Assembly (NCBI GenBank): GCA_037441385.1
Contig: JBBISH010000003.1
Span: 32,001 to 96,000 of the forward strand
From: Myxococcales bacterium
GTDB lineage: Bacteria > Myxococcota_A > UBA9042
Direction of reading: 5' to 3'
Length of the DNA: 64,000 nt
Under the pieces are notes generated by a model. It made no database searches. It was not told the origin of the DNA and saw only the letters and a list, made by a program, of their open reading frames with translations. Positions 33,348 to 64,000 of this stretch are shown here, piece after piece. Position 1 is the first letter of the stretch, and the number at the start of each line of letters is the position of its first letter. The translations under genes and the position numbers were made by a program.

Positions 33348-33950
33348 CTACACGATCCCCCACCACCGCCGCAGATCCAGCCCCACCGCGTCGAACGGCC
33401 GCAGCTTGACGCGCCGCTGCCGTCCTTCGGCGGTCTGGACGATGCTGTAGGCGCCCTCGCGCAGCTCCAGTACCTCCACAGTCTCGAGCAGCGGGTCGAC
33501 CAGCCACAGGTGCTGCACGCCCTGCTTGGCGTAGATCGGCAGCTTGCGCATGCGGTCATGGCGAGCGGTACTTGGCGACACCACTTCGCACACCCAGTCG
33601 GGCGCCAGCTCGATCCAGGGCGCTTCGCTGCGGGCGGGCATGCGCTCCAACCGCCAACCGGCCAGGTCGGGCACGATCACCTGTGGTGCCTCGTAGGGCC
33701 CCGGAAAGTGCAGCTCGGGCTCGAACAGGATGCGCCAGCCGCCGGGTGTGCGCGGACCACCGCCGCGGCCGAAGAATGCGCCAATCAGCTGCCCGCCCAG
33801 GACCGACGCTGCCTCGGTATGCGCCCCACCCGGCCGCGGCGACAGCACCAGCTCGCCGTCCAGGATTTCGGCGATCTTGTGCTCGGGCGCGGCCACCACG
33901 TCGTCATAGGTGGCGATGTTTCGCTCGGATTTGCGCGCTGTTGCCGGCAT
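33348..33950 (-). CDS. Uma2 (DUF820) family endonuclease
   Basis: EILDGEL..SPRP...H; VPDLAGWR; PDWVCEVVSPST...DR..K..IYA..GV..LWLVDP. Confidence 0.93.
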   Translation of the reverse strand: MPATARKSERNIATYDDVVAAPEHKIAEILDGELVLSPRPGGAHTEAASVLGGQLIGAFFGRGGGPRTPGGWRILFEPELHFPGPYEAPQVIVPDLAGWRLERMPARSEAPWIELAPDWVCEVVSPSTARHDRMRKLPIYAKQGVQHLWLVDPLLETVEVLELREGAYSIVQTAEGRQRRVKLRPFDAVGLDLRRWWGIV

Positions 33951-34036
33951 GTTCCACCTCTGCAGCTGTCCACCAGCATAGCACACGCGCCAGCGGCATC
34001 GACACTGCAGAGGCCCGGCCTCGTGGCCGGAGGCCG

Positions 34037-57713: not shown

Positions 57714-58874
57714 ATGATTTTCTTGGACTACAACGCCACGGCTCCGCTCCTCCCGCAGGCCCGCGAGGCGATGCTCCGCACGCTGGAGCAAGACCTGGGC
57801 AACCCGTCGTCTTTGCACCGGGCTGGCCAGCGCGCCCGGGCACTGATCGAGGCGGCGCGGCGGCAGGTGGCCCACCACCTGGGCGCCCGCCCAGGCCAGA
57901 TCGTGCTGACCAGCGGCGCGACCGAGGCGAACAATCTAGCTTGGCGTGGCATTCTGACGCCGCAACTGCGCCTTGGGCTGCGGCCGCGGGCCCTGTTGGC
58001 GGCCTTGGACCATCCTTCGGTGGCGGCGTTGGCCGAGCAGCTCCAGGCAGACGGCGTGGAGCTTGGCTGGGTGGCGATCGATCGCGACGGACGCCTGGAC
58101 TTGGCGGCGCTGGCGCAAGCGCTGCAAGCGGCCCCGGCGTTGGTGCACGTGTCGGCGGTGGGTGGCGAGTTGGGCACCTTGGCGGATGTGCCGGCGATCT
58201 GCGCGTTGGTGCGCCAAACGACCGCCCACCTCCACGTAGACGCCGCCCAGGCTTGGGGCCGCGTGCCCGTCCACGTCGAGGCTTGGCCGGTCGATTCCTT
58301 GTCGCTGTCGGGGCACAAGATCGGTGGGCCGATGGGCACGGGTGCCCTGTATCTGCGCGCCGGGGTACGCCCTTTGCCGCTCGCACCTGGCCACCAAGAG
58401 CACGGTCTGCGCGCTGGCACAGAAAACGTGGTGGGCGCGGCCGGGTTTGCTGCCGCCGTTGCGGAACTGCCGGCGCGGCTGGCCCAGGCCCGCGAAGTGC
58501 GCCGCCAACGGGATCTGCTGGCCGAGCTATTGGCGCCGATCGGCGGATTGCTGCGGTTGGGCCCCGCAGACGCGGCCACCGAGGTGGGCACGACGCTCTG
58601 TGTGGCGATCGCGGGCGTGCCGGCGCCGCTCTTGGTGATGGCCTTGGACTTGGCAGGTGTCGCCGCTTCGGCGGGATCGGCCTGCAGTTCGGGCACGGCG
58701 GAACCGTCGGCTTTGCTGCGCGCCTGCGTGGAATTGGCCGGTCTGGAGCCAGCGCGCGCCCGCCAGGCGATCCGGTTTTCCGTGGGTCCAGGCCTGAGCG
58801 ACCAGCAACTGGTAGCTGCCGCCCAGGCCGTGGCCGCGTGCACGGCGCGCATTCGCGGCAGCCGCGTGGAATAG
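57714..58874 (+). CDS. iscS: Cysteine desulfurase (IscS/NifS group I)
   Basis: MIFLDYNAT, GNPSS, TSGATEANN, HVDAAQ, SGHK, GTEN, GSACSSG; next to mnmA. Confidence 0.9.
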   Translation: MIFLDYNATAPLLPQAREAMLRTLEQDLGNPSSLHRAGQRARALIEAARRQVAHHLGARPGQIVLTSGATEANNLAWRGILTPQLRLGLRPRALLAALDHPSVAALAEQLQADGVELGWVAIDRDGRLDLAALAQALQAAPALVHVSAVGGELGTLADVPAICALVRQTTAHLHVDAAQAWGRVPVHVEAWPVDSLSLSGHKIGGPMGTGALYLRAGVRPLPLAPGHQEHGLRAGTENVVGAAGFAAAVAELPARLAQAREVRRQRDLLAELLAPIGGLLRLGPADAATEVGTTLCVAIAGVPAPLLVMALDLAGVAASAGSACSSGTAEPSALLRACVELAGLEPARARQAIRFSVGPGLSDQQLVAAAQAVAACTARIRGSRVE

Positions 58875-59000: not shown

Positions 59001-60197
59001 GTGGACAATTACCCAAGCGAAATCCGTGTTCCTGGCGCTGTGAGCGTGCCGCCGCCCAAGAGTGGCGCCATCGTCACGGCCGTGCGCGCCCACATGCGCT
59101 TGCCCCCCGGCGCCAGCGTCGCGGTCGCCATGAGCGGCGGCGTGGACTCCAGCACGGTCGCGGCCCTCCTCGTCGAGGCGGGCTATCAGGTTTTTGGTTT
59201 GACCGCGCGATTGTACGACCTAGACCCGGCGCAGATCGGTCGCGCGGGCAGTTGCTGCGCACCCGACGACGCCCGCGATGCCAAAGCCGTGGCCGGCGTG
59301 CTGGATATCCCGCACTACACCGTGGACGAGCGCGGGAGTTTCGCGCGCGACGTGATCGCGCCGTTCGAGCAAGCCTGGCAGCGCGGTGATACGCCCAACC
59401 CGTGTGTCGCCTGCAACCGCTCGCTCAAGTTCGATCGACTGGTGGCCACCGCCCGCGCGCTGGGCGCCATGGCCTTGGCGACGGGCCACTACGCGCGCCT
59501 GGAGCTGCAAGACGGGCTCCCCACCTTGCGGCGTGGCGTGGATCCCAACAAGGATCAGGCGTACTTCCTGTATCCGTTGGCGCGCGAGGCCGCTGAATTC
59601 GTTCGCTTCCCCCTGGGCGACATGAGCAAGGGTGAAGTGCGCGGCCACGCGCTGCGGCTGGGTGTCCCTACTGCCAGCAAAGCCGAGTCCATGGACATCT
59701 GCTTTGTGGGGGCCGAGCGCACCCAGGCTTGGCTAGACAAGCGGACGGCGCCGGTGCGGGGCACGATCGTCGATACCCACGGGCGCGTCCTGGCGGAACA
59801 TACCGGTCTTGCTGGCTTTACTGTGGGCCAGCGCCACGGCTTGGGCCTGGCCGCGCGCCCCGACGGCAGCCCCTGGTACGTGGTCGACAAGCGCGGCGAC
59901 GGCACAGTGGTGGTGGGCGAACGGGCGCAACTGCAGGTGGCACGGCTCGATCTGGGCGAGTGCATTTGGCTGGCTGGCTCGCCGCCCCAGCAGGGTCAAG
60001 AGATCCAGGTGCAAATTCGCCACCGCGGCCAGGCTGTGCCGGCGCAGGTGCTGTCCGCGGGGCCCGACAGCGCAACAGTCCAGGTTGTTGGTGAATTGCT
60101 GGCAGCAGCCCGCGGTCAGAGCGCCGTTCTGTTTGCCGGCGACCGCGTCTTGGGTGGCGGACTCATCACCCAAGCCGAAGGTCGGGAGCCGCTATGA
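59001..60197 (+). CDS. mnmA: tRNA 2-thiouridine(34) synthase
   Basis: AMSGGVDSS, SCC, TPNPCVACN, ATGHYAR, KDQ.YFL, ESMDICF, TVGQR.GL. Confidence 0.97.
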   Translation: MDNYPSEIRVPGAVSVPPPKSGAIVTAVRAHMRLPPGASVAVAMSGGVDSSTVAALLVEAGYQVFGLTARLYDLDPAQIGRAGSCCAPDDARDAKAVAGVLDIPHYTVDERGSFARDVIAPFEQAWQRGDTPNPCVACNRSLKFDRLVATARALGAMALATGHYARLELQDGLPTLRRGVDPNKDQAYFLYPLAREAAEFVRFPLGDMSKGEVRGHALRLGVPTASKAESMDICFVGAERTQAWLDKRTAPVRGTIVDTHGRVLAEHTGLAGFTVGQRHGLGLAARPDGSPWYVVDKRGDGTVVVGERAQLQVARLDLGECIWLAGSPPQQGQEIQVQIRHRGQAVPAQVLSAGPDSATVQVVGELLAAARGQSAVLFAGDRVLGGGLITQAEGREPL

Positions 60198-61138
60198 GCG
60201 ATTTCGTGCGCGGCGAGCGCCGCTCGTCTCGTCCCCTGATTCCCGTGCCCGACACCACGGCCGGCACATTGGAGCTGGTGCGGCGCCTGGGATACACGTT
60301 TGCCGACCCCAGCTTGCTCGAGGCTTCGTTGACCCATCCGTCGTGGCACAACGAGCATCCCGAGGCCGTGTCCGACAACCAGCGCCACGAGTTTTTAGGC
60401 GACGCCGTGGTTGGCCTGGTGATCACCGAGGCGTTGCTCGAGCGCATGCCCGATCGGCGCGAAGGCCAACTGACCGTGCTGAAATCGCAGTTGGTGCGCG
60501 AGTCGGCACTGGCCGAACTGGCGCAAGCCCTGGGCATCGGCGGCGCGCTGCGCTTGGGCCGCGGCGAAGACTACACCGGCGGGCGCCGGCGAACTTCCGT
60601 GTTGGCCGACGCGTTCGAGGCGGTGGTGGGCGCCGTGTTCGTCGATGGCGGCTATGCTGCAGCGCGCGAGGTGGTGCGGCGCCTGTTCGACGACCTGCTC
60701 GACGCCGCGGCTGCTGCGGTGGCCGAGCTGGGTGCGACGCCCACGGCGTTGTCGGCCGGCGTAGCCAATTGGAAGACGGCGGTGCAAGAACTGCTGCAGC
60801 AGCACGCGAACCTGCCGCCGACCTACGCGGTGGTCGACGAGCAAGGTCCTTTCCACGCGCGGACTTTTGTGGTGCAAGCGACCGCGCGGGCGGCCGGCGA
60901 AAAGGGTGAGGTCGAATTGGTGGGCGTGGGGCGCGGTCCCAGCAAGAAGCTGGCCGAACACGCCGCCGCGTCGGACCTGTACCAGCGCGTTCTGACCCAT
61001 GTGAACAACGCCGACCCCACCTTGGCCGCGCTGTTGCAGGCGCCCGTGACCCGCCCCTCGGGTCTGCGCGCTCGCCCGCTCGCGTTGGGCGACGTCAAGA
61101 AGGCGCCTGACGATGATTCCGATGGCGCGTCCCCATGA
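60194..61138 (+). CDS. rnc: Ribonuclease III
   Basis: [26 protein letters not shown]; dsRBD with K..LQE-like motif and G.SKK.AE..AA. Confidence 0.95.
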
Positions 61139-61274
61139 TATCGGCTACTCTTGGGGGATTGGCGCCGCGCGGCCGCGTACACAAACCGGGCCACGCAGGC
61201 GGGGAGCGAAGATGTTGAGCCTGAATTGGATTGCGATTGGTGTAGGCGCGGGCCGCCTTGAGGTGCGACAGGCC

Positions 61275-61496
61275 ATGTTGGGTACCTGGGAAATCATTGC
61301 TATTTTGGCGGTCGTCGTGCTCCTGTTCGGCGCGAACAAGCTGCCCCAGCTGGGCAAGGGCCTGGGCGAAGCCATCGGCAACTTCAAGAAGGCGCAGCGC
61401 GAAGGCGAAAAGGGCGTGCTGCACGACGAGATCGATGCGACGCCGCGGGTCGAGGCTGAGCGCAAGAAGAGCCTGGATCGCGACGAGCACGCCTAG
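61275..61496 (+). CDS. tatA: Twin-arginine translocase TatA/E subunit
   Basis: [39 protein letters not shown]. Confidence 0.95.
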
Positions 61497-61553
61497 AGAC
61501 CTGACCAATTACGGTACACTCGTTCAGTTCTTGGATGTTCTGGTCAGGTCTCT
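61495..61553. repeat. Perfect 13-bp inverted repeat with 33-nt spacer (IS-end/MITE remnant or terminator-like hairpin)
   Basis: agagacctgacca (61495-61507) and tggtcaggtctct (61541-61553); overlaps the tatA stop codon. Confidence 0.75.
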
Positions 61554-61883
61554 CGCTGCTAGGTGGGTCGCAAGCTCGCCCCGTTGGGGACTCGCCGCTC
61601 CAATTGCAGCGGGTCCGGCGCGGCGAAGAACTCAAATTGATGCGCTCTCTAGAACACGGATCCATTTAGACTTTCTCCGCGCAGCCGAACCGTCGAATTC
61701 GGCGCGGTCAATCGCAGCCGGCGCGCACGCACAGGGCTTTGGCGTATCCGACCTGCGGATCGCGGACGCCGGCCGCCGCCCGCGCACAACCCCAACCACA
61801 GGCAGGTACGGCGCCGCAAAAACGCGCCGGGGCTGCTCAGGCAAGGACCTGGCAACCCCGGATCGTTGTGCGATGGGCAGCGA

Positions 61884-62156
61884 CTACTTCAGGTGCTCGA
61901 CGCCGACCTTCTTGACGGTGGCCTTCCAGACCTTGGCGGGCAGCCACTTTGGGCGATTGGCGGGAGCCGTGGTCTCGACGCGGCCGCCGTTGAACACGTG
62001 CACGCGCTTGGTGCCGCGCTCGCGCAGGCGAATCTCGGTGTAGCCGCGGGCCGCAGCCTTCAGGGCCGCGCCGCGCGGTTGGGCGTTCGAGAAGACCACG
62101 TTGGTGTCCTTGCCTTCCTGCATCAATACGAAATTCTTCTTCTCTTTCTCTGCCAT
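61884..62156 (-). CDS. Non-histone chromosomal protein MC1 family (archaeal-type DNA-bending protein), 90 aa
   Basis: GGGGGAG RBS; KNFVL...VF...QPRGAALKAA.RG...IRLRERGTKRVHVF...AP.NRPKWLP...VKK matches the Methanosarcina MC1 pattern (as recalled) end to end. Confidence 0.92.
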   Translation of the reverse strand: MAEKEKKNFVLMQEGKDTNVVFSNAQPRGAALKAAARGYTEIRLRERGTKRVHVFNGGRVETTAPANRPKWLPAKVWKATVKKVGVEHLK

Positions 62157-62914
62157 GATCCAGCTCCCCCCGGATTGCAGCAGCCGGGTGCCAACCGCAC
62201 GAGCGGTGCGGTCGTCGTCGGTGCGCCGCGAGCCTGGCCTCTCCAGCCTCGACGGACGAACCCCTATTGGCTCGAATCGGCGACCTGCGCCGCGGTCGTG
62301 CCCTGGCGGTGGCGTCTGCACCGGCCGCCGACCTGGCGCCCTCCGTGCAAAACCCGTGACCGTGTCGCTTCCCGCGGTTGCCCGCCGGCAGCTCCTCTGT
62401 CGCACCACTCACTTGTCGGCAGGTATGGGCCGGTTTTCGTCGTTATGCAAGCGGCAAGCGCGGCGGCAACGCCAGGTGACGATAATTCCGCTGAAGTTGG
62501 CCGCGCGGCAAATTATGCCGTTGACAGGCGAGTGCGATTGAGTATCTATATATTTCAACGCGTTATATGTAGAGCGTCTGCAGTTCAACGATTTGGCGGC
62601 GCGGCGCGAGCGGCGATTTCCCCATGATCACGGTACGCGAGGGCCGTGATCGTTTTTTGCTGGTCGCGCACAGAATCGCCGGGCGCGGCCCGCGGTATGG
62701 GCCCATTTTGCGTACACCAGCCGGGCGCCGCTCGCCAACGCGCTTGGGACTTCGCCTGATTATTCAGCAGTTGCAAACGGCTCGCGAACTGGTCAAGTCC
62801 GACAATCGTGCTACCGTAGCGGCACGGCAGCATGCAAGCCCTGGCGTGGCGAGCAAGGTGGTGTGGGTGGGCCAGCACAGGGCGAACGCAACCAGGGGAG
62901 CAGCCGCGTGGCCA

Positions 62915-64000
62915 ATGTGGGCTGCGGTGGGGATCCTGCTTTGGCACGCGGCCGCGACACCGGCTTGGGCGGTGGCTGCGCACGCGCGGGCCAAGAGTGG
63001 CAAGACAGCGGCCGCCAAGGCCGTGCCAACCAAGGCAGCCAAGCCGGCGAGTGCAAAGGGGAAGCCGGCCACTAGCAAGACGTCTGGCGGCGCGACTGCC
63101 AAGAACTCGGGCACAAAGCCGAAACCAGGCAAGGCCAAGGCGGCGGGGAGCGGCAAAAAGGTCAAGGCCGGCAAGACCAAGACGCCCAAAGTCCCGGCGC
63201 ACGCGGCGCGAGTGGTGCCCAGCCAAAAACGCAGCCAAGACGGTCGGTCGCACCACGACCACCGCGCCAAATGGGCGCAATTGCACGAACTGATTCAGCG
63301 CTTTCGCGTTGGGGCGTTGGCGGGACTAGACGGCAAGTTGCGCGGCCTGATCGACGGCGCCCAAGGCGATGTGGCACTGGCGGGTTCGCTGGTGCTGGCA
63401 CGCACGCAAGCGAGCCTTCGGACTGGTGATCTTGGTGTCCAGGCCTTGGAGGACGCCAAGCCGCTGCGCCAAGCCCTGCCGGCCAGTTGGGACTGGGCCC
63501 AGATCGAGGTGGACTACGCTGCCGGTCATTTCGGCCAAGCCCTGGAGCACATGCGCGAGTTCCGTAAACAATACGGTGATTTTCGCTGGGCGGCCGCCGA
63601 TCTTCTTTATAGCCGGCTTGCCGAGCGGGTCGCGCCCCCCCAAGAGGTCGCGGAGATTGCCCTGGCGCTCTACGAGAAATCGGCGCTGCACCTGCCCCGC
63701 GACGAGCTGCTGGCGCGCGCGGCCCGGGCCAGCGAGCAGATCGCCGGCCCCAAAGCCATGGGACTATGGCGAAAACTGCTTCTGCAACACCCAGAGAGCG
63801 AGTTCGTCGCCGAAGCCGCGAGCCACGTTGACGTGTCAACCTTGACCGACCCCGAGAACTACGACCGCATGGCGTTGCTGTTTGCGCGCCGCGCGTACGA
63901 GCGCTGCCGCGAGGTCGGAAAGCCCTTGTGGTTCAAGGGATATCGGCTAAGCGAGGTGGGCTACTACCTGGGCAAGATCGGCTCGGAGCGGCTGCGCGAC
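62915..64000 (+). CDS. Exported TPR/helical-repeat protein with Lys/Ala-rich N-terminus (possibly N-terminus of an Slt-type lytic transglycosylase); truncated by window edge
   Basis: Not in the ORF track. Frame is open from ATG 62915 (alternative GTG about 70 nt upstream) to the window end: MWAAVGILLWHAAATPAWA signal, K/A/P-rich tract, then helical repeats (LWRKLLLQHPES...LTDPENYDRMALLF). Confidence 0.7.
   Translation, partial: MWAAVGILLWHAAATPAWAVAAHARAKSGKTAAAKAVPTKAAKPASAKGKPATSKTSGGATAKNSGTKPKPGKAKAAGSGKKVKAGKTKTPKVPAHAARVVPSQKRSQDGRSHHDHRAKWAQLHELIQRFRVGALAGLDGKLRGLIDGAQGDVALAGSLVLARTQASLRTGDLGVQALEDAKPLRQALPASWDWAQIEVDYAAGHFGQALEHMREFRKQYGDFRWAAADLLYSRLAERVAPPQEVAEIALALYEKSALHLPRDELLARAARASEQIAGPKAMGLWRKLLLQHPESEFVAEAASHVDVSTLTDPENYDRMALLFARRAYERCREVGKPLWFKGYRLSEVGYYLGKIGSERLRD

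Follow-up and report, generated by a model that had tools for sequence, protein, structure and literature searches.

The MC1 gene and its protein

Bacterial chromatin is usually described as HU-based, and MC1 as an archaeal speciality. The window analysed here, a stretch of 64,000 nucleotides (nt) from a Myxococcales bacterium (contig JBBISH010000003.1), carries on its minus strand at 61884-62156 an MC1-family gene of 90 codons plus stop, assigned by Pfam profile (PF05854), PDB match and AlphaFold2 (AF2) model of its product, P0001. The translation is exactly the 90 residues quoted in a first-pass annotation of this DNA, followed by a stop. That annotation had pointed to a short basic open reading frame (ORF) here and left its strand unsaid. 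The protein is small (~90 amino acids, aa) and strongly basic, as is expected of MC1, with a mass of 10.1 kDa, an isoelectric point (pI) of 10.66, and 20 Lys+Arg against 8 Asp+Glu. All the motifs that were listed for it, namely NFVL, QPRGAALKAA, IRLRERGTKRVHVF, RPKWLP and VKK, are found in it. Its codons are also rich in G+C at third positions (GC3) like those of the neighbours, as had been claimed, with a GC3 of 0.879 compared with 0.79-0.87 in eight other window genes.

Is the protein a true member of the family? The assignment, first made from motifs, is borne out by Pfam: the MC1 profile PF05854 matches over its full length, positions 1-95 of 96, with an E-value of 1.1e-28 and 99.8 bits (cut-off 23). 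Among 177,635 distinct PDB sequences, the sole phmmer match at E<=1 is MC1 (1t23, 2khl, 2nbj; E 9.3e-19). An AF2 model built from a 36-sequence alignment has a predicted local distance difference test score (pLDDT) of 89.9 and a predicted TM-score (pTM) of 0.73. Its strands (E) and helix (H), E7-13, E16-24, H27-36, E41-46, E51-63 and E75-88, follow the order strand-strand-helix-strand-strand-strand. This is the order published for MC1, whose pseudo-barrel fold (beta1-beta2-alpha1-beta3-beta4-beta5) carries a long arm that links beta4 and beta5 (10.1101/2024.02.22.580433). Foldseek against the PDB ranks 1t23 first with probability 1.00, the runner-up having an E-value of 0.29. Judged from these matches, the window protein is a true MC1-family member.

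The MC1 family is small. Of the clusters in a 50%-identity protein library, 254 have a match at E<=1e-3 and 90 reach E<=1e-10; when the library is clustered at 90%, 1039 proteins match, and the best 120 of the 1039 are 66-98% identical. Some members are built differently. P0124 (293 aa) and P0132 (282 aa) are fusions of AMMECR1 followed by MC1, P0133 has a 100-aa extension N-terminal to MC1, and P0217 is 527 aa long with MC1 at residues 339-422. In P0109 (109 aa), the representative of the window protein's own 50% cluster, a tail of ~20 residues rich in Lys, Pro, Ala and Thr precedes the MC1 domain; thus some bacterial-type MC1 proteins have a basic N-terminal extension. MC1-family genes are also found on four plasmids of Halococcus dombrowskii, one of them with three matching places (NZ_CP095006-9), and on a 560-kb plasmid of Salinibaculum sp. 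(NZ_CP129994), so MC1 genes can sit on large haloarchaeal replicons.

Relatives of the locus were sought in one genome per species (185,579 species), which were scanned with patterns from 36 bacterial-type sequences. There were 524 matching stretches, of which 495 encode a relative, and the best 80 of the 495 are referred to as L001 to L080. The closest two, L001 and L002, have MC1 proteins 99% and 97% identical to that of the window, and their genes differ from it at 12 and 35 nucleotides.

Where does translation of the gene start? The start codon is the ATG at 62154-62156. The same frame could also be read from a GTG at 62408, giving 174 aa. Since 35 homologues all start at the same Met-Ala, the 90-aa start is the real one. 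Upstream of the ATG, GGGGGGAG at 62164-62171 (-) was read from the sequence as a Shine-Dalgarno-like signal, with 7 nt between its last G and the ATG. The stretch is kept in L001 and L002, and GGAGG is found at the equivalent place in L003-L006; it would serve as the Shine-Dalgarno signal of the gene. At the other end, 23 nt past the stop, lies a terminator-like element (61818-61861, minus strand), made of a G+C-rich hairpin of ~15 bp at 61827-61861 and a UUUUU at 61818-61822. The RNA of 61815-61883 (-) folds with -37.4 kcal/mol (z -4.33), and equally good folds were found in 0/200 shuffles. A consensus pattern scan passed over this hairpin because 4 nt lie between the stem and the U-run; the sole terminator-like match of that scan (61400-62700) is inside the start of a neighbouring ORF. 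The hairpin may well act as a terminator. With a putative ribosome-binding site and a terminator-like hairpin of its own, the MC1 unit looks monocistronic. These two elements are also the sole pointers to the good expression and the nucleoid role that the first-pass annotation had proposed, both of which are conjectural.

A further short G+C-rich hairpin (ACCGCAC...GUGCGGU) can be drawn in the leader at 62190-62215 (-), ~40-60 nt 5' of the MC1 start, and an equivalent one is present at the same place in L001, L002 and L004-L006. The fold of the 104-nt leader 5' of the ATG is no better than that of shuffles (z -1.22), and the hairpin, seen in the alignment of relatives, is an unproven candidate.

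Residence in a bacterial chromosome

By their titles, the best 80 loci consist of 44 bacterial loci, 35 archaeal loci (Poseidoniales and synonyms) and L068, titled Salinimicrobium. The 44 bacterial titles comprise 30 of Myxococcota, Myxococcales, Deltaproteobacteria or Bradymonadales, 5 of Proteobacteria or Pseudomonadota, 6 of Enterobacteriaceae or Enterobacterales, 2 of Rickettsiales, and one plain 'bacterium'. The bacterial MC1 sequences thus come mostly from uncultured Myxococcota genome bins. Eight loci titled uncultured Enterobacteriaceae/Enterobacterales or Rickettsiales (L010, L018, L020, L023, L026, L080, L031 and L032) have 61-70% G+C all the same; five of them carry a Myxococcota-type slt-MC1(-lepA) block, and L010 and L009 encode identical MC1 proteins. 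These eight titles look wrong, and a taxonomy read from record titles calls for caution.

What surrounds the gene? Its divergent upstream neighbour is a gene that runs past the window end; the 5' part of it occupies 62624-64000 (+), where its start is uncertain. Pfam gives no match in the window part of this ORF. The full orthologue, L001:3698-6385 (-), has 895 aa with an SLT domain (E 6e-15) and TPR repeats and marks the gene as a lytic transglycosylase gene (slt). An SLT gene is the divergent upstream neighbour of MC1 in 28/44 bacterial loci, whose MC1 proteins are 72-99% identical to the window's, and 8/28 of them have non-Myxococcota titles. Downstream on the same strand as MC1, lepA follows in 20/44 bacterial loci. 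The genes next in line there often encode a Na/Ca exchanger, a muramidase and a GAF histidine kinase. In the other 16/44 bacterial loci, several marine bins among them, none of these neighbours is present.

In the window itself the downstream side is different. It is taken by tatA (61275-61496, plus strand; Pfam TatA_B_E, E 9e-18), which is convergent with MC1 and whose start is placed at the Met of MLGTWE within the ORF 61113-61496, then by rnc for RNase III (60194-61138, plus strand; Pfam Ribonucleas_3_3, Ribonuclease_3 and dsrm), and by mnmA for the tRNA 2-thiouridylase (59001-60197, plus strand; Pfam tRNA_Me_trans with its M and C domains). The first-pass annotation had named these three genes from the letters, and Pfam confirms all of them. 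The order slt-MC1-tatA-rnc-mnmA is also found in L001 and L002, which are separate assemblies. As the tatA-rnc-mnmA side is common to these two only, it reflects a local rearrangement. Synteny, which had been proposed as a check, thus holds for the SLT neighbour and, in fewer loci, for lepA. In our favoured reading the gene descended vertically as part of a core-gene block, arranged slt <-> MC1 -> lepA in most of the relatives and slt <-> MC1 followed by tatA-rnc-mnmA here.

Composition and substitution agree with such a residence. Over the 45 loci titled bacterial, L068 included, GC3 of MC1 correlates with the G+C of the flanks (Spearman 0.77), and in the 35 archaeal loci the coefficient is 0.93. 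The ratio of non-synonymous to synonymous substitution rates (dN/dS, Nei-Gojobori) is 0.025-0.30 in all 21 pairs computed, taken from four groups of equal length. Between the window and L001 there are 11 synonymous differences and one non-synonymous difference; between the window and L002 the numbers are 30.5 and 4.5. A fixed position among core genes, host-like composition and purifying selection are what is expected of a host-resident gene. On these grounds MC1 is a long-resident gene of a bacterial, Myxococcota-type chromosome, which agrees with the earlier description of it as long domesticated.

Could the gene instead be a piece of archaeal DNA that mis-assembly or mis-binning has attached to bacterial sequence? 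Such a case does exist among the relatives. L068, titled Salinimicrobium sp. (Bacteroidota), encodes an MC1 of marine group II type, and 8 neighbour-gene clusters are common to it and Poseidoniales loci; it is probably an archaeal contig mis-binned in a bacterial bin. The window differs from it in having bacterial genes on both sides of MC1 in one contig: the flanks encode Mur ligases, Rho, PheS/PheT, PilY1, RNase III, TatA and SLT, so the window is bacterial in either direction. An assembly chimera had been named as what would refute the first interpretation, and the identical junctions in the separate assemblies L001 and L002 speak against one. Furthermore, the SLT neighbour, kept in those 28 loci, is peptidoglycan-specific, the GC3 of MC1 is host-like, and the nearest archaeal sequences are merely 62-70% identical. 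We give this explanation next to no credence.

Another explanation is that the gene was recently acquired on a mobile element, phage or plasmid and has no settled role in the host. There are precedents for transfer, since nucleoid-associated protein (NAP) genes have reportedly often been transferred between archaea (PMC7613761), and the haloarchaeal plasmids that carry MC1 account for 5 records, at 37-39% identity. None of these 5 plasmid matches is a bacterial plasmid. Among the 70 window ORFs scanned there is no transposase, integrase or phage family, in line with the earlier remark that no mobile-element genes lie nearby, and no tRNA gene was found in the window. The searches also gave no phage-record match and no PHROG, giant-virus collections not being covered. 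Host-like composition argues against a recent arrival, and the conserved position in 28 loci speaks for vertical descent. Recent acquisition is therefore highly improbable. Because of the bacterial flanks, the common junctions, synteny, composition and purifying selection, the chimera and the recent insert are both very unlikely, and a long-resident gene is the reading that we retain.

G+C makes up 67.7% of the window, in which Pfam also places genes for two Mur ligases, Rho, PheS, PheT, a PilY1-domain protein, a rhomboid protein and a PPIase. Rfam at gathering scores gives zero matches in the window, and no second MC1 copy is present in it. Of the 70 ORFs scanned in the window, none is an HU or IHF gene, a result that applies to the window alone. 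Directly 5' of mnmA, at 57714-58874 (+), lies a gene for a class-V aminotransferase that is cysteine-desulfurase-like (Aminotran_5, E 2e-55); its place beside mnmA makes a sensible pairing for tRNA thiolation. A putative restriction endonuclease of the Uma2 family is encoded at 33351-33986 (-) between metabolic genes (Pfam E 1e-22). In the lytic-transglycosylase ORF at 62624-64000, a low-complexity stretch of ~70 residues rich in Lys, Ala, Gly and Pro (~62990-63200, plus strand) sits between a hydrophobic N-terminal segment and the TPR/SLT part, and L001 has a similar one. This stretch resembles a histone-H1-like tail; it could be a mere linker.

Relationship to the MC1 of marine group II archaea

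The nearest archaeal relatives of the window protein among the best 80 of the 495 loci are the MC1 proteins of marine group II (Poseidoniales), which are 62-70% identical to it. They are found at L038, L042, L045-L054 and L056-L079. The first-pass annotation had given Methanosarcinales and haloarchaea as the hosts of MC1, a list that leaves out this nearest relative. The marine group II proteins have the same length as the window protein, and QPRGAALKA is common to both, a signature that itself served as a search pattern. They differ in their archaeal hosts, in the N-terminal motif, which is KKYFVL in most of them and KKNFVL here, and in their neighbours, a Macro-domain protein, sdhA/sdhB and a large LamG/PA14 protein. 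In Poseidoniaceae MC1 has been reported as highly transcribed (PMC9723583).

Some loci of both groups have a succinate dehydrogenase/fumarate reductase flavoprotein gene at most a few kb away from MC1. It is upstream in 5 bacterial loci (L036, L037, L039, L043 and L044), and downstream in 20 archaeal loci with the Fe-S subunit alongside. This proximity is probably a coincidence of conserved housekeeping genes.

How are the bacterial and archaeal proteins related? A tree was built from 115 rows: the window protein, the 80 locus proteins, 5 proteins with Methanothrix or Methanotrichaceae names, and 29 of the 150 listed representatives. The 29 were picked as full-length-looking, and three of them were trimmed to the last 92 residues. 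They carry no organism labels except for P0175, P0211 and the P0125 type. P0175 and P0211 are 68% and 63% identical to annotated Halococcus and Salinibaculum MC1, and the P0125 type is linked to Methanothrix/Methanotrichaceae names by profile search. The alignment had 106 distinct rows and 90 columns, and IQ-TREE was run with LG+C20+F+G4.

One branch of the tree splits 92 rows from 23 with a support of 95/99, and it is found in 96% of 200 bootstrap trees. On the side of the 92 rows stand all 45 bacterial rows, the 35 loci with archaeal titles, L068 and 11 representatives that are unlabelled; the Methanotrichales proteins and the two representatives of haloarchaeal type are among the 23. Several of the unlabelled rows are long branches. 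Judged by this split, the bacterial and marine group II MC1 have one origin, distinct from the Methanotrichales and haloarchaeal types. Their common QPRGAALKA subfamily therefore implies that one inter-domain transfer links Myxococcota bacteria and marine group II.

Is there any direction in this transfer? Within the 92 rows, marine group II forms one group of 38 rows with weak support (67/87). When the tree is rooted on Methanotrichales, this group falls inside a grade of bacterial branches, a nesting that is weakly supported, and the best tree with all bacteria held together has a p-value of 0.135 in the approximately unbiased (AU) test, so that a single bacterial clade stays compatible with the data. 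An archaeal origin of the bacterial MC1 gene is plausible, and the tree is compatible with either direction of transfer. The earlier idea of an archaeal-type protein, for which a phylogeny had been suggested as a check, thus gains the well-supported clade with marine group II. According to the legend of its Fig. S2, a published tree by Hocher et al., made from archaeal homologues alone, placed marine group II MC1 within Methanosarcinales (10.1101/2021.07.08.451601; PMC7613761). With bacterial sequences included, the nearest relatives of marine group II MC1 are bacterial, which revises the published inference.

Predicted DNA contacts and possible role of MC1 in bacteria

Methanosarcina thermophila MC1 (1T23, 2KHL, 2NBJ) is the founding member of PF05854 and resembles the window protein over its whole length, in the order of secondary structure, and in the key residues Arg25, Gln23, Pro72, Trp74 and Lys86. 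It has 93 aa and a pI of 10.32 (PMC7613761), against 90 aa here, and is 49% identical to the window protein in the Foldseek alignment, with Trp61 replaced by Gly in the latter, whose host is a bacterium. The bacterial proteins agree with each other in charge, the median pI of the 44 bacterial locus sequences being 10.65, whereas the haloarchaeal forms of MC1 are not basic.

The DNA contacts of Methanosarcina MC1 have been described from nuclear magnetic resonance (NMR) and mutagenesis (PMC3928310, PMC6776556). Arg25 at the start of the helix, aided by Gln23 and Gln26, neutralises phosphates on either side of the narrowed major groove; the arm puts Pro72, Trp74 and Met75 into the minor groove; and Lys85, Lys86, Arg88 and Ile89 of the last strand touch a second minor-groove site. 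Replacing Arg25 by Ala or Gln lowers the affinity more than 100-fold, and mutants at Trp74, Pro72, Ile89 and Arg25 bend DNA less (PMC3928310, PMC6776556). We mapped these contact residues through the alignment of the window protein with the PDB protein and counted them in the window protein and the 44 bacterial loci (n=45). Arg25 (R28 in the window protein), Gln23 (Q26), Pro72 (P69), Trp74 (W71), Lys86 (K83) and Lys30 (K33) are each kept in 45/45, so that the Arg of QPR and the arm Trp, which had been singled out as retained, are invariant. Lys85 (K82) is kept in 31/45. Three positions carry replacements, Leu for Met75 (L72, 44/45), Val for Ile89 (V86, 43/45) and Gly for Arg88 (G85, 45/45), the last two of which also occur among archaeal MC1 (PMC3928310). 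Of the residues that touch DNA in the Methanosarcina protein, R28, P69, W71, K82 and K83 are thus identical in the window protein, and L72, V86 and G85 are replaced.

By analogy, the window protein would lie at the DNA's concave side. Pro69, Trp71 and Leu72, in the loop between the last two strands (residues ~64-74), would reach into the minor groove, and a second minor-groove site would be held by Lys82, Lys83 and Val86 of the last strand. Where the major groove is narrowed and phosphates come close to each other across it, their charge would be neutralised by Arg28, which stands where the helix starts. The outcome would be a sharp bend or V-turn in the DNA. The protein would be made from a single-gene transcription unit with its own ribosome-binding site and terminator-like hairpin. 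DNA binding and bending, the monomeric state, expression and a genome-wide role are all conjectural properties of the protein, read from its likeness to the archaeal one. We consider it quite likely that the product is a true member of the MC1 family, namely a small and basic architectural protein that binds DNA, probably as a monomer, and is encoded in the core chromosome of uncultured Myxococcota.

Several observations weigh against this reading. In the predicted structure 1t23 is the best match, as noted above, but the agreement with the NMR structure is partial, the fit being moderate with TM-scores of 0.48/0.46, a root-mean-square deviation of 8.3 A and an E-value of 5e-3, and no match is found at E<=1e-3. 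The target 1t23 is a single NMR model with a mobile arm, which probably lowers the TM-score. No NCBIfam model matches the window protein. In the DNA-contact surface, Gly stands at the position of Gln26 in 45/45 bacterial sequences, although Gln26 assists Arg25 in Methanosarcina MC1 (PMC6776556). The position of Lys22 is Ala in 31/45, Arg in 13/45 and Lys in 1/45, with Ala in the window protein, and the Leu at Met75 corresponds to a mutation, Met75Leu, that weakens DNA binding of the Methanosarcina protein (PMC3928310). The window protein also lacks 6 residues after the helix in the alignment with PDB MC1. Upstream of the gene, a consensus sigma-70 scan of 61400-62700 returned zero promoter-like sites. 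On the side of phylogeny, the tree has only 90 columns, its bootstrap is unsettled (correlation 0.85), the 92-row group was named after inspection of the tree, and the organism names of the loci are those of record titles, some of them plainly wrong. Despite the changes in the surface, the MC1 mechanism is most likely for the window protein, with an affinity or sequence preference that may be different.

Does the altered surface point to another function? The MC1 fold might have been reused for a role outside DNA architecture, such as binding RNA or a protein partner. With an invariant Gly at Gln26 and with Lys22 and Met75 changed, the binding surface departs from that of Methanosarcina MC1. 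Against such a reuse, the residues with the strongest effect on DNA binding and bending (Arg25, Trp74, Pro72 and Lys86) are invariant, and the protein is strongly basic. No operon partner is conserved either, given that lepA follows in less than half of the bacterial loci and that the terminator-like hairpin closes the unit here. We find this reuse scarcely believable.

A question of more weight is whether the protein is a general packager or a specialised factor. It might be an MC1-like DNA binder that protects DNA in stress or resting stages, or acts on bent DNA, junctions or promoters, with HU as the main packager. Burroughs et al. (2017) write of MC1 and the other additional proteins of bacteria that they 'never displace HU' (PMC5499826). 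Any single one of the MC1 genes of Methanosarcina acetivorans can reportedly be lost, with phenotypes seen under mitomycin C, under heat and on leaving stationary phase (PMC13729102), and MC1 has been reported to shield DNA from radiation (PMC7613761). The conservation of the gene, its single-gene unit and its core-gene context suit a specialised factor and a general architectural protein equally. We regard the specialised factor as possible, if doubtful. At the other end stands the scenario in which MC1 is a principal packaging protein, rivalling or displacing HU, in an uncultured and mostly aquatic clade of Myxococcota, and in which marine group II acquired its MC1 from such bacteria. If this were true, a chromatin protein went from archaea to bacteria and back to archaea. 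The bacteria-to-archaea step fits because the rooted tree nests marine group II in the bacterial grade, at the weak support given above. Taken as a whole, this scenario is rather improbable. The architectural DNA-binding protein of the core chromosome remains our favoured reading.

The MC1 domain is known outside archaea in giant viruses as well. Mimivirus gp275 and other giant-virus MC1-like proteins are set beside the window protein here by description. According to a preprint (10.1101/2024.02.22.580433), gp275 binds and bends DNA and is essential, has ~30% identity to archaeal MC1, and is oligomeric with disordered extensions; the key Arg is Lys in mimivirus lineages. A mirror case is HTa, the HU homologue of Thermoplasma, a chromatin protein typical of one domain that entered the other and was retained there with a nucleoid function (PMC7613761). 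HTa differs in its unrelated fold, in the opposite direction of transfer and in being experimentally characterised. HU and IHF are likewise small basic proteins that bend DNA sharply, and Loth et al. compare MC1 with both (PMC6776556). Their fold is unrelated to that of MC1, and they are dimeric and bind on the outside of the bend, with MC1 on the concave side.

How new is an MC1 in bacteria? The novelty is not as strong as the first-pass annotation had it. The label 'chromosomal protein MC1 [Myxococcales bacterium]' is already in use at NCBI for P0003 and P0018, and in the words of Burroughs et al. (2017) bacterial HU 'might be additionally accompanied by ... MC1 or histones' (PMC5499826). 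In the same year, a survey of fold superfamilies listed the MC1 superfamily as common to eukaryotic viruses and Archaea exclusively (PMC5671483). The full-text literature, with subscription journals and supplements outside its coverage, gave no study characterising a bacterial MC1. Bacterial MC1 was thus previously known only from annotation and one sentence in the literature. As far as we have seen, there is no earlier description of the lineages that carry it, of its conserved locus, of the selection on it or of its tie to marine group II.

The practical value of the finding is limited for now, as the hosts are uncultured. What it adds is that a whole bacterial lineage retains MC1 under strong purifying selection and in a fixed place among core genes. 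This gives a natural test case for the interchangeability of nucleoid proteins between domains, a question that Hocher et al. raise for archaea. For chromatin evolution the finding is of moderate interest, through the link between the two domains and the question whether MC1 shares the nucleoid with HU in these bacteria.

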